Shown here: piece after piece, positions 2,285-3,008 of the stretch | How positions within the stretch are numbered: position 1 is the stretch's first letter | Layout of the letters: each line of letters begins with the position of its first letter | Origin: a virus | Reading direction: 5' to 3' (one strand) | Virus genome (UHGV): UHGV-1783573 | DNA: 11,149 nt | Translations under genes and position numbers: made by a program | Notes under the pieces: model-generated | What the model was told of the DNA's origin: nothing | Databases searched by the model: none | What the model saw: the letters and a program-made list of their open reading frames with translations, nothing else

Positions 2285-2316
2285 TTTTTTTTGCAAATCA
2301 CAAAGTCCATTTAATG

Positions 2317-2339
2317 AGCCTCGCGATGCGGGGCTTTTT
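2317..2339 (+). terminator. Rho-independent terminator downstream of Rz (first of a tandem pair)
   Basis: Stem AGCCTCGC / GCGGGGCT (8 bp, one G-U wobble), GAT loop, followed by TTTTT. Confidence 0.6.
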
Positions 2340-2346
2340 GCAATAA

Positions 2347-2371
2347 ATGCGTACCGCAACGCATGTTTTTT
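2347..2371 (+). terminator. Second rho-independent terminator downstream of Rz
   Basis: Stem ATGCGT / ACGCAT (6 bp), ACCGCA loop, followed by GTTTTTT. Confidence 0.5.
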
Positions 2372-2486
2372 ACACCGAACCTGCCCCTTTGGAATGGGCC
2401 TTTGAGGATACCAGTTAGTGCTGGCGAGCCTCGGTGGGCTGGTTTCCTATGCGGCAAAGGTTCATTTCAAATGGTAGGTAAACGTT

Positions 2487-3008
2487 ATGAATATCGTGCC
2501 ACTTAATTACAAAGGTGAAATTGTCAGTTTCAACACTGATGGTTGGATCAACGTCACAGGTGTTGCTGAGAGATTTGGGAAACGCATTGATAACTGGATG
2601 CGTTTGGCAGAAACGCTTGAATACGTTCGTGCTTTAGACGAAGCGTTGACCGGGAAAGAATCTGAAATTTTACATCCCTCACAATCGAGGTATGTAAAAA
2701 CCAGCAAGGCACGAAAGGACAGGGGTGGTGGTACGTGGCTACATCCAAAACTTTCAGTTGCATTTGCCCGTTGGTGTGATGCTCGTTTTGCTGTGTGGTG
2801 CGACCTGCACATTGATAGTCTGCTTCGCGGTGAACTGACTGAGCAGCAGAAATATGAGCAAGCATGTCGCATTCGCGATGACCGGAAATCAAAAGCCAGC
2901 AATGGGGCAAGAGAGATGGCTCGCTGGCGATGGGATAAGCCGGTTATTGAAGCAAATGTTGAGTACTGGCGCGAGCAACTGCAGTTGACTCTCGATATCG
3001 CGTGCTGA
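2487..3008 (+). CDS. KilA-N domain-containing protein (phage accessory protein, function unknown)
   Basis: 173-aa ORF downstream of the tandem terminators. N-terminal region (LNYKGEIVSF..., GTWLHPKLSVAFARWCD) resembles the KilA-N DNA-binding fold family as I recall it; C-terminal third is charged and uncharacterised. Confidence 0.7.
   Translation: MNIVPLNYKGEIVSFNTDGWINVTGVAERFGKRIDNWMRLAETLEYVRALDEALTGKESEILHPSQSRYVKTSKARKDRGGGTWLHPKLSVAFARWCDARFAVWCDLHIDSLLRGELTEQQKYEQACRIRDDRKSKASNGAREMARWRWDKPVIEANVEYWREQLQLTLDIAC

Follow-up and report, generated by a model that had tools for sequence, protein, structure and literature searches.

The question raised by this locus is whether the KilA-N gene that follows the lysis genes is an independently transcribed unit or a member of the late operon. 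The window, by which we mean the whole 11,149-nucleotide stretch of virus genome UHGV-1783573 that was analysed, is a P22-like E. coli prophage, and its KilA-N gene occupies the slot of P22 rha, between Rz and the packaging genes. A sequence-only reading had set the gene apart as a moron, standing behind tandem terminators and possibly expressed from the prophage. The data indicate a different arrangement (Table 1). The mRNA leader and the KilA-N gene stand in the order terminator-leader-gene, not promoter-gene-terminator, and the supposed 115-nt spacer proved to be a structured mRNA leader, conserved and lying on the same strand as the gene. On balance, we lean towards an explanation in which a terminator, a portable pseudoknotted leader and a KilA-N/ORF11CD3 gene work together as a whole, with Q-dependent late transcription and leader-gated translation.

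Table 1. Features of the KilA-N locus, in positions of the window
Feature	Position	Strand	Remarks
Rz spanin gene, last in the lysis cassette	1802..2284	+	Pfam Phage_lysis, E=3.8e-29
Intrinsic terminator 1, AGCCUCGC-GAU-GCGGGGCU then U5	stem 2317-2335, U-run to 2339	+	dG -14.6 kcal/mol, z -3.16
Structured pseudoknotted mRNA leader, subfamily 1	2341..2489	+	about 145 nt, ending at the start codon
Leader hairpin P1 (AUGCGU-ACCGCA-ACGCAU) + U6, the claimed terminator 2	2347-2364, T-run to 2371	+	
Pseudoknot donor CCGCA, P1 loop	2354..2358	+	complementary to 2450-2454
Anti-Shine-Dalgarno segment ACCUGCC	2379..2385	+	pairs with GGUAGGU 2473-2479 in MFE and centroid folds
Long hairpin P2/P3 with apical GGCG-loop hairpin	2388..2471	+	MFE of 2372-2490 -49.2 kcal/mol, z -3.2
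Pseudoknot acceptor UGCGG, 3' internal loop of the long hairpin	2450..2454	+	same loop covariation as the donor
Shine-Dalgarno region GGUAGGU	2473..2479	+	8 nt 5' of ATG
Gene for the 173-aa KilA-N + ORF11CD3 protein	2487..3008	+	
KilA-N domain, aa 7-114	2505..2828	+	APSES-like DNA-binding fold
Divergent ORF11CD3 domain, aa 122-169	2850..2993	+	two long helices in the model, forming a hairpin
Apparently non-coding 3' flank moving with the cassette	3009..3264	+	matches to 20AR0300, HK544 and SE16 stop at 3264-3270

The first of the two claimed terminators was confirmed. Its strong hairpin and U-run are 93-100% conserved 3' of Rz in HK022, HK97, phi80, mEp235 and Stx phages, and the element is labelled "terminator" in the records of HK544, Emek, phi80 and others. 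It closes the lysis cassette in many lambdoid phages, regardless of which gene comes next. The consensus terminator scanner did not pick it up, we think because the stem was extended greedily into the U-run. The second terminator was upheld only in part. A hairpin and a T6 run are present, but the hairpin is P1 of the leader, it is weak (dG -6.9, z -1.75; 12 of 200 shuffles folded equally well), and the T-run is mostly missing in relatives. The P1 stem type that bears the T-run in the copies read accounts for 10 of the 74 unique subfamily-1 variants. The other variants retain the P1 hairpin but continue into CAACAACC or similar, without the T-run. Since the T-run was seen in one P1 subtype only, the tandem terminators are a subtype-specific appearance and not a conserved design.

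The leader RNA is conserved and strand-specific, and its helices and pseudoknot are kept among related copies. With covariance model R1, the window leader scored 158.9 bits (E=3e-48) on the + strand, while the - strand reached only 15 bits; the range of scores was 159-176 bits on the + strand against 15-25 bits on the - strand. In the subfamily-1 alignment (n = 74 unique copies), 98.9% of the cells were paired, compared with 33-48% when the partners were slid. When both subfamilies were aligned, in an alignment that was fitted to the model, 94.8% of the cells were paired, and in 20 of 34 stem pairs both sides had changed with pairing kept; none of 500 shuffles reached this. Because the sequences fall mostly in two clades, the compensatory cells, though numerous, go back to few independent events. 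As the innermost pair of P1, 10 variants had U-A and 63 had C-G, and the compensatory changes in P2/P3 included U-A to G-C or C-G, and C-G to U-A via U-G. P2/P3 also contains several G-U pairs, which makes the fold strand-specific. For the apical part, an AGCCU-CGGU-GGGCU hairpin was considered and dropped, and the ACCAGUU/GGCUGGU pairing was preferred because it covaries.

The loop of P1 and the 3' internal loop of the long hairpin covary as a pseudoknot. At least nine different complementary combinations were found across the copies, among them CCGCA/UGCGG, CCGCAAU/AUUGCGG, UCGCAU/AUGCGA, UCUCAC/GUGAGA, UGCCCG/UGGGCA and UCACAC/GUGUGA. The complementarity of each loop to its own partner was 5.23, against 4.51±0.14 after permutation, and 0 of 2000 permutations reached the observed value. 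The pseudoknot was weakened in some loop variants (the ACCGCCC loops, RothD, L038 and L076). The pairing of a hairpin loop to an internal loop recalls the topology of the pistol ribozyme, but this likeness was rejected, as Rfam gave no match and the pistol ribozyme has its acceptor on the opposite strand of the internal loop. We also rejected a conserved upstream ORF that would begin with AUG, GUG or UUG in the pseudoknot acceptor, since its frame relative to the main ORF differs among copies, which results from the pseudoknot covariation. With Rfam 15 at the gathering score, the window and 10 related loci gave only tRNAs, and at E<=5 nothing matched over the main leader fold (2372-2489). The sole Rfam overlap was a weak rimP-leader match at 2284-2372, in the terminator/P1 region (20 bits, where the gathering score is 47; E=1.8). 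Our literature search found no described leader RNA for rha or KilA-N genes.

The two leader subfamilies were found in more than 240 viral contigs and in 836 of 5426 E. coli genomes (15% of complete genomes), and one subfamily pattern alone occurred in representative genomes of 22 species, mostly Enterobacterales. The leader is present in P22, ES18, BTP1 and Stx2 phages, and it is unannotated in the records examined. The leaders were always located directly 5' of the start codon of a gene for a KilA-N, Rha, P22_AR_N, HNH-AP2 or T5orf172 protein. The conserved, covarying structure lies on the sense strand, and its spacing to the start codon is fixed: a script found a purine-rich Shine-Dalgarno sequence and a start codon a few tens of nucleotides past the hairpin in 132 of 134 subfamily-1 copies and 120 of 120 subfamily-2 copies. 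The annotated "orf201" start of P22 and BTP1, and many PGAP calls of Rha and KilA-N genes, fall within the leader structure; for P22 Rha, the competing starts give proteins of 201 and 178 aa. Window positions 2373-2471 were 98% identical to the DNA directly 5' of rha in P22 and BTP1, and 77% identical in ES18.

The mosaic boundary of the downstream module lies at about 2249, within the 3' end of Rz, where the BLAST matches to HK544 and Emek start (query position 50). Positions 3129-3264 were 95-97% identical to the DNA directly 3' of rha in P22 and BTP1. The 3' flank (3009..3264) contained no convincing ORF: several small ORFs, one overlapping the KilA-N stop codon (3002/3008-3103) and the rest within 3009-3297, were unsupported, and a search for a Pid homologue in the flank found none. 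A single perfect IHF consensus site was found at 3038-3050, and IHF matches over the whole window were at chance level.

These data bear on whether the leader is a junction at the DNA level only, which would offer homology, or a site for homing or recombination, to cassette swaps and whose RNA would be functionless. A 98%-identical leader stands before coding sequences that are unrelated, rha cassettes have the 3' flank as well, the cargo includes HNH and GIY-YIG-like mobile nuclease genes, and several phages carry two leader copies per genome. However, the subfamilies differ at most stem positions and yet stay paired, the complementarity of loop and internal loop is preserved across many sequences, the G-U pairs and the covariance-model scores are strand-specific, and the spacing of the leader to the Shine-Dalgarno sequence and ATG is fixed. 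Pure recombination homology predicts neither strand specificity nor covariation nor fixed spacing, and we consider this explanation highly improbable.

The claim that the KilA-N ORF has its own ribosome-binding site held, and the predicted fold places that site in a helix. In the window variant, the pairing probability averaged 0.72 over positions -14 to -5, and in P22 the pairing probability of the Shine-Dalgarno sequence was 0.96. In subfamily 2, the Shine-Dalgarno sequence lay inside the basal helix with a pairing probability of approximately 1.0, against 0.46-0.87 in shuffled controls. In most subfamily-1 variants, the predicted pairing was about 0.65, which did not exceed the shuffled-upstream controls. 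We find the predicted occlusion convincing in subfamily 2, the window subtype and the P22 subtype only.

The very high conservation of the apical sequence suggests a function beyond simple masking of the Shine-Dalgarno sequence. The leader could be a sensor RNA, either riboswitch-like or protein-binding, or a substrate of RNase III or RNase E, in which a partner switches translation or mRNA stability and masking is only the output. The unpaired and apical nucleotides GUUA, the GGCG loop, CCUC and CGGGC are common to both subfamilies, and the pseudoknot has been preserved across at least nine different sequence pairs. The lower stem of the leader has 16-17 bp, which is sufficient for RNase III to be considered, given the stem length that this enzyme requires. 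The toxicity of Rha, in turn, depends on host IHF (PMC4936722). Against this, no ligand, protein or cleavage site was pinpointed, no alternative (anti-anti-Shine-Dalgarno) conformation was found, the leader contains no IHF consensus, and it resembles no Rfam riboswitch or ribozyme. We regard the sensor or substrate explanation as rather unlikely. A broader proposal is that the leader represents a new class of pseudoknotted regulatory RNA that responds to a trigger (a metabolite, a ribonuclease, or a protein of the phage or the host) and controls exchangeable late genes of the Bro network and of homing endonucleases in lambdoid and P22-like phages across Enterobacterales, the model phage P22 and Stx phages among them. 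We put this forward tentatively, as a possibility that is still doubtful. If it is true, the new leader RNA class could provide the connection that has been lacking behind the IHF-dependent phenotype of Rha, which has been known for decades.

In the proposal that the KilA-N gene is a moron, the gene is insulated by two terminators, has its own promoter and may be expressed from the prophage. Part of this proposal stood. The slot is variable among related phages, which carry KilA-N, Rha, other genes or none in it, the upstream terminator is strong, and the window subtype has a second hairpin with a T-run. Genuine morons also occur nearby in P22-like phages, such as pid adjoining rha (PMC3573128, PMC8835761). 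The features of an independent unit were not found, however. Scans with the sigma70 consensus found no promoter-like site in 2340-2486, neither in the standard scan nor in a relaxed scan at 8 of 12 matches; a promoter that is atypical or depends on an activator would escape such scans. No intrinsic terminator was found 3' of the gene, where the only hairpin (3005-3034) has no T-run. The G+C content was 0.43-0.52 across the gene and 0.44-0.56 nearby, so there was no compositional anomaly. Without a recognisable promoter, a downstream terminator or a contrast in composition, the moron reading is unsupported. The order of the elements, the position of the gene on the late-operon strand, the conserved RNA structure in the supposed spacer and the lack of a T-run after P1 in most relatives also speak against it. 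Moreover, the five BTP1 genes that exceed a TPM of 100 in lysogens (PMC7067206) do not include rha, whose leader is the same. We consider it very unlikely that the gene is a moron.

The evidence points instead to read-through. A T-run terminator precedes 105 of 113 unique leader copies. Some phages have the leader cassette after Q and before the holin gene, or the reverse, so that it is flanked by these two genes; in CharmingMan, it is preceded by a promoter-like site and by a hairpin with a T-run, two elements that we read as pR' and tR'. Taken together, these observations favour Q-antiterminated read-through. P22 rha, with the same leader, is described as a late-operon gene (PMC4936722). We infer that Q-dependent late transcription with leader-gated translation is the likeliest mode of expression.

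The KilA-N identity proposed from the sequence was borne out by a profile search, in which PF04383 matched with 77.5 bits (cut-off 23.8, E=8.5e-22) over 103 of 107 profile positions. The 173-aa protein has 704 homologues at E<=1e-5, and a 100% identical E. coli 20AR0300 stretch is annotated as "KilA-N domain-containing protein". The gene is already annotated in HK544, Emek and RefSeq, and it adds little as a member of the Bro network. The charged C-terminal third, which had been called uncharacterised, is recognisable as a divergent ORF11CD3 domain. PF10549 reached 16.2 bits with the complete protein and 19.2 bits (E=0.0015) with the fragment alone, both below the cut-off of 25, and it is precomputed on 99%-identical proteins. 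The match to phrog_518 ("Rha-like") had E=3.9e-9, and BLASTP against a bona fide ORF11CD3 gave E=5e-9. The AlphaFold model (mean pLDDT 90.2) has helices at 116-137 and 141-172, which form a helical hairpin over aa 116-172. PF09669 (Phage_pRha) gave no hit in the protein at E<=0.01, the NCBIfam search and the PDB sequence search gave no match, and Foldseek against the PDB returned nothing significant. PADLOC gave only a partial domain-level match, to PDC-S22 over aa 11-50.

In the explanation that we favour, the variable slot between lysis and packaging genes holds three parts in succession. The first is the intrinsic terminator that closes the lysis cassette. The second is the leader, which behaves as a portable 5' UTR. 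The third is the KilA-N + ORF11CD3 protein, which corresponds to P22 Rha with one domain swapped and is related over its full length to ORF11 of Pseudomonas phage D3. The gene would be transcribed solely within the late operon, by Q-modified polymerase that crosses the terminator or terminators. The folded leader would then keep the ribosome-binding site in the basal helix. In this way, a DNA-binding protein with the potential to do harm would be translated at a low level, or only upon a trigger such as processing, a protein or a ligand. The protein would bind DNA through its APSES-like domain and pair through the helical hairpin, and it may be an accessory regulator or an antirepressor-type factor. 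Membership of the Bro network is consistent with the antirepressor-like nature that had been suggested for it. The leader matters for several reasons. It is abundant and present in well-studied phages, yet it is absent from Rfam. It corrects gene models, including the start of "orf201" in P22 and BTP1 and many PGAP calls. It also offers a testable handle on the restraint of potentially toxic DNA-binding and nuclease genes in a read-through late operon, and on the exchange of such cassettes between phages.

Among known systems, the rha gene of P22, ES18 and phi80 (Rha, "orf201"), which harms phage growth in IHF-deficient hosts (PMC4936722), lies in the same slot, after Rz and ahead of the packaging genes, and shares the upstream terminator, the leader and the 3' flank. 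Both proteins carry a C-terminal ORF11CD3 module. P22 Rha is Phage_pRha + ORF11CD3, whereas the N-terminal domain of the window protein is KilA-N, and the IHF phenotype is known for Rha only. The ORF11 family of Pseudomonas phage D3 is KilA-N + ORF11CD3 over its full length, with about 50-60% identity to the window protein, and the Emek record notes similarity to D3 Orf11. In Pseudomonas prophages these genes lie in the early operon, beside the S24 repressor gene and overlapping an upstream ORF; the window gene, in contrast, probably belongs to the late operon, behind a terminator and a leader.

Like the phage morons (lambda bor and lom, the HK97 morons and P22 pid), the window gene is an accessory gene within the late region that varies between relatives. 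It differs from them in having no recognisable promoter, no downstream terminator and no compositional contrast, and it is co-oriented with the late operon; pid has its own mapped transcript start and terminator (PMC8835761). BTP1 BstA shares with the window protein a KilA-N(-like) N-terminal domain and a P22-like prophage setting (PMC8585504). BstA is an abortive-infection protein of 307 aa with a different C-terminal domain, encoded beside cI (PMC8585504), and it is highly expressed in BTP1 lysogens (PMC8585504, PMC7067206).

Restraint of antirepressor-type genes at the RNA level, as proposed for the leader, is a feature of P1/P7 c4, P4 CI, IsrK and P22 sar. The window leader has no match to Rfam C4, isrK or other families, and it acts in cis through its fold, with an intramolecular pseudoknot, rather than as one half of an antisense pair. 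The free-standing endonuclease genes of T4 have RBS-sequestering hairpins, or mobile regulatory cassettes, upstream of exchangeable genes, and in this they resemble the leader. The T4 PeSL cassettes contain a promoter, whereas none is recognisable in the window leader. A study of satellites and protein domains described the Bro network, is not known to mention a shared mRNA leader, counts KilA-N, ORF11CD3, Phage_pRha and P22_AR_N as members, and notes links to HNH-AP2. The genes carried behind the leader correspond exactly to this set.

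The window covers the late region of an E. coli prophage that is P22-like (Lederbergvirus-type). DUF2560 is followed, in this order, by the genes for the small terminase subunit, large terminase subunit, portal, scaffold and coat. Positions 2200-3264 were 100% identical to a prophage in E. coli 20AR0300 and approximately 98% identical to phages HK544 and Emek, whose records label the ORF a 'KilA-N domain-containing protein' and mark a terminator after Rz. The KilA-N gene is already known, and the finding as put forward in the sequence-only reading is ordinary and partly mistaken. 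The 20AR0300 prophage is otherwise identical but passes directly from the KilA-N cassette to DUF2560; the Gp49/Sf6-gp66 ORF is an extra module. tRNA genes also precede the holin gene in other lambdoid late regions, and in RothD a leader cassette directly follows such tRNAs.

Features of the window around the KilA-N gene
Feature	Position	Strand	Remarks
tRNA genes Thr(tgt), Tyr(gta), Gly(tcc)	2-361		upstream of holin gene
S21-type holin	653-868		
DUF1327 ORF	873-1223		116 aa; Pfam E=5.7e-41; inserted between holin and endolysin genes
Lysozyme	1287-1820		
Rz	1802-2284		
Terminator 1	2317-2339		dG -14.6, z -3.2
Leader	2341-2489		subfamily 1
Leader hairpin P1	2347-2371		dG -6.9, z -1.75
Predicted pseudoknot partners	2354-2358 and 2450-2454		P1 loop; 3' internal loop of long hairpin
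KilA-N ORF	2487-3008	+	173 aa
Hairpin over stop codon	3005-3034		dG -9.5, z -3.6; no T-run
IHF consensus	3038-3050		perfect match
3' flank of cassette	3129-3264		
Terminator-like site	3229-3208	-	
Gp49/Sf6-gp66 family ORF	3298-3678		Pfam E=6.2e-35
DUF2560	3779-4021		

The 115-nt segment from the T-run to the ATG forms a long hairpin (-49 kcal/mol, z -3.2), at the base of which the Shine-Dalgarno region GGUAGGU is paired with ACCUGCC. A pattern scan of viral contigs found this leader (subfamily 1) at no fewer than 120 loci; the matches listed held 134 copies and 81 unique 170-nt variants. Among them, a purine-rich Shine-Dalgarno sequence and ATG lay directly 3' of the hairpin in 132 of 134 copies (counted by script), while the reading frames that follow were highly unlike each other. 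Because its position at the start codon is fixed, the leader is considered a cis-acting element. RNAalifold on 74 unique copies returned P1 (a short hairpin), a long hairpin with interruptions and an apical hairpin, with 98.9% of cells paired, against 33-48% when the partners were slid. P1 has a covarying stem (U-A vs C-G) and a conserved loop, ACCGCA. The covariance model scored 159-176 bits on the plus strand and 15-25 bits on the minus strand, and it also found divergent second copies, which led to a second subfamily on at least 120 viral contigs. When both subfamilies were aligned, 20 of 34 pairs had changed on both sides with pairing retained and 94.8% of cells were paired, values matched by none of 500 shuffles; this alignment had been fitted to the model, with most of its signal lying between two clades.

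Between the P1 loop and the internal loop on the 3' side of the long hairpin, complementarity takes many sequence forms (CCGCA/UGCGG, CCGCAU/AUGCGG, CCGCAAU/AUUGCGG, UCGCAC/GUGCGG, UCGCAU/AUGCGA, UCUCAC/GUGAGA, UCGCAU/GUGCGA, UGCCCG/UGGGCA and UCACAC/GUGUGA). Complementarity of loops from the same copy exceeded every one of 2000 permutations; pairing was poorer in a few variants. This is good evidence that the two loops form a pseudoknot. In a Pantoea leader (L144 4466-4641), a ~40-nt insertion replaces the normal P1 loop, clear pseudoknot complementarity is missing, and this copy may be degenerate. Depending on the copy, the acceptor reads AUG, GUG or UUG; in the window (2450-2480) it starts a frame of 10 codons, MRQRFISNGR*, terminating in the Shine-Dalgarno region. 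This frame was rejected as coding: no Shine-Dalgarno sequence precedes it, and copies differ in its phase with respect to the main ORF. The AUG/GUG/UUG pattern is attributed to covariation of the putative pseudoknot rather than to coding.

In P22 and BTP1, the DNA directly before rha shares 98% identity with the leader segment; for ES18 the figure is 77%. The leader also lies upstream of Rha genes in a Hafnia phage, of other KilA-N genes in Stx2 phages and, between Q and the lysis genes, of HNH endonuclease genes in CharmingMan and RothD. Subfamily 1 alone occurred in 836 of 5426 complete E. coli genomes. With one subfamily-1 pattern and one representative genome per species, 22 genomes were positive, mostly Enterobacterales (Enterobacter, Citrobacter, Kluyvera, Kosakonia, Yersinia, Cedecea, Pantoea, Brenneria and Symbiopectobacterium). 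Neither the window nor ten related loci, drawn from both subfamilies, matched a family in Rfam 15. The leader is well supported as a widespread structured RNA that neither Rfam nor the genome records examined include, and it is worth following up.

The KilA-N gene had been read as a moron, an independent unit set behind tandem terminators. The first terminator held up: it is a strong hairpin followed by a U-run, already annotated in HK544 and Emek. HK022, HK97, phi80, mEp235 and many Stx phages carry the same 54 bases after Rz irrespective of the next gene, so this terminator is counted with the end of the lysis cassette rather than with the KilA-N gene. The second element did not hold up: it is a weak hairpin with T6, namely P1 of the leader, and a T-run follows P1 in the window subtype only. 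Promoter scans found no sigma70-like promoter from the terminators to the ATG, no terminator was found after the gene, and its base composition is unremarkable. A terminator nearly always stands upstream of the leader (a T-run within ~70 nt in 105 of 113 unique copies among the matches listed), and in some phages the cassette is located between Q and the holin gene. These results argue against independent transcription. There is no evidence for a moron.

Among the matches listed, the upstream ORF was Rz in 64 of 101 cases and came in 13 from two clusters resembling Q antiterminators. The cargo of 110 unique subfamily-1 copies among these matches, grouped by N-terminal sequence and labelled by Pfam scans of representatives, comprised 46 Phage_pRha, 39 KilA-N, 16 HNH_3+AP2, 5 'MQLVEIKK' type (read as Rha-like on sequence grounds), 2 unclassified, 1 P22_AR_N and 1 T5orf172-like. 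Subfamily 2 carried an identical repertoire among its listed matches, including the window's own KilA-N type. Several phages (L034, L049, L048, L144, L145, L127 and L029) have two leaders separated by 1-2.5 kb, which often belong to different subfamilies; the two have separate cargo, one an HNH endonuclease gene and the other a Rha or KilA-N gene. The order is either Q, leader-HNH, holin, lysin, Rz, leader-Rha/KilA-N, terminase or Rz, leader-KilA-N, x, leader-HNH, terminase. Positions 3129-3264, the 3' flank of this cassette in the window, match the DNA directly after rha in P22 and BTP1 at 95-97% identity. Since rha cassettes share both the 5' leader and this flank, different genes are swapped between the two flanks. 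No convincing ORF was found in the ~290 nt (3009-3297) between the KilA-N and Gp49-family genes.

In P22 (L004 1546-2151) and BTP1 (L275 1246-1851), rha is annotated as 'orf201' (201 aa) from a GTG that falls within the apical region of the leader (window-equivalent 2418-2420); the conserved Shine-Dalgarno sequence and ATG lie 69 nt further downstream and give 178 aa. 'Rha family' CDSs called by PGAP in E. coli and KilA-N homologue calls of 189-230 aa also extend into the leader. These starts look mis-called.

The gene rha has been described as part of the late operon (PMC4936722), and it is absent from the five BTP1 genes for which high expression in lysogens was reported (PMC7067206). Combined with the promoter, terminator, composition and position data, this suggests that the KilA-N gene would be transcribed solely by Q-modified, terminator-resistant polymerase. 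Masking of the Shine-Dalgarno sequence is clearly predicted for the window subtype, P22 and subfamily 2; in most other subfamily-1 variants it was no better than in shuffled controls. The strongly conserved apical nucleotides and the pseudoknot suggest possible recognition by some partner. Our best reading is that the leader would gate translation of a potentially harmful DNA-binding protein inside a read-through operon, and that its sequence may also provide the homology by which cassettes move.

The ORF was confirmed as a KilA-N protein with its own ribosome-binding site (Pfam E=8.5e-22), with 704 homologues at E<=1e-5. Its C-terminal third, previously called uncharacterised, is ORF11CD3-like: it matched the middle of the PHROG 518 profile, 'Rha-like transcriptional regulator' (E=3.9e-9), aligned with a bona fide ORF11CD3 domain (E=5e-9) and scored 19.2 bits with Pfam ORF11CD3, below the cut-off of 25; PF10549 is recorded on proteins 99% identical to it. 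P22 Rha consists of Phage_pRha and ORF11CD3, and the window protein is therefore of the same two-domain kind but with a different N-terminal DNA-binding module. The Pseudomonas D3 ORF11 family contains full-length relatives with 50-60% identity. In Pseudomonas prophages (L276-L279 2501-3022), the homologue overlaps a 119-aa upstream ORF and is divergent from an S24-peptidase repressor gene. There, the full-length KilA-N and ORF11CD3 protein is encoded in the early operon adjoining the repressor gene, and the same protein family is therefore employed at a different time of the phage cycle.
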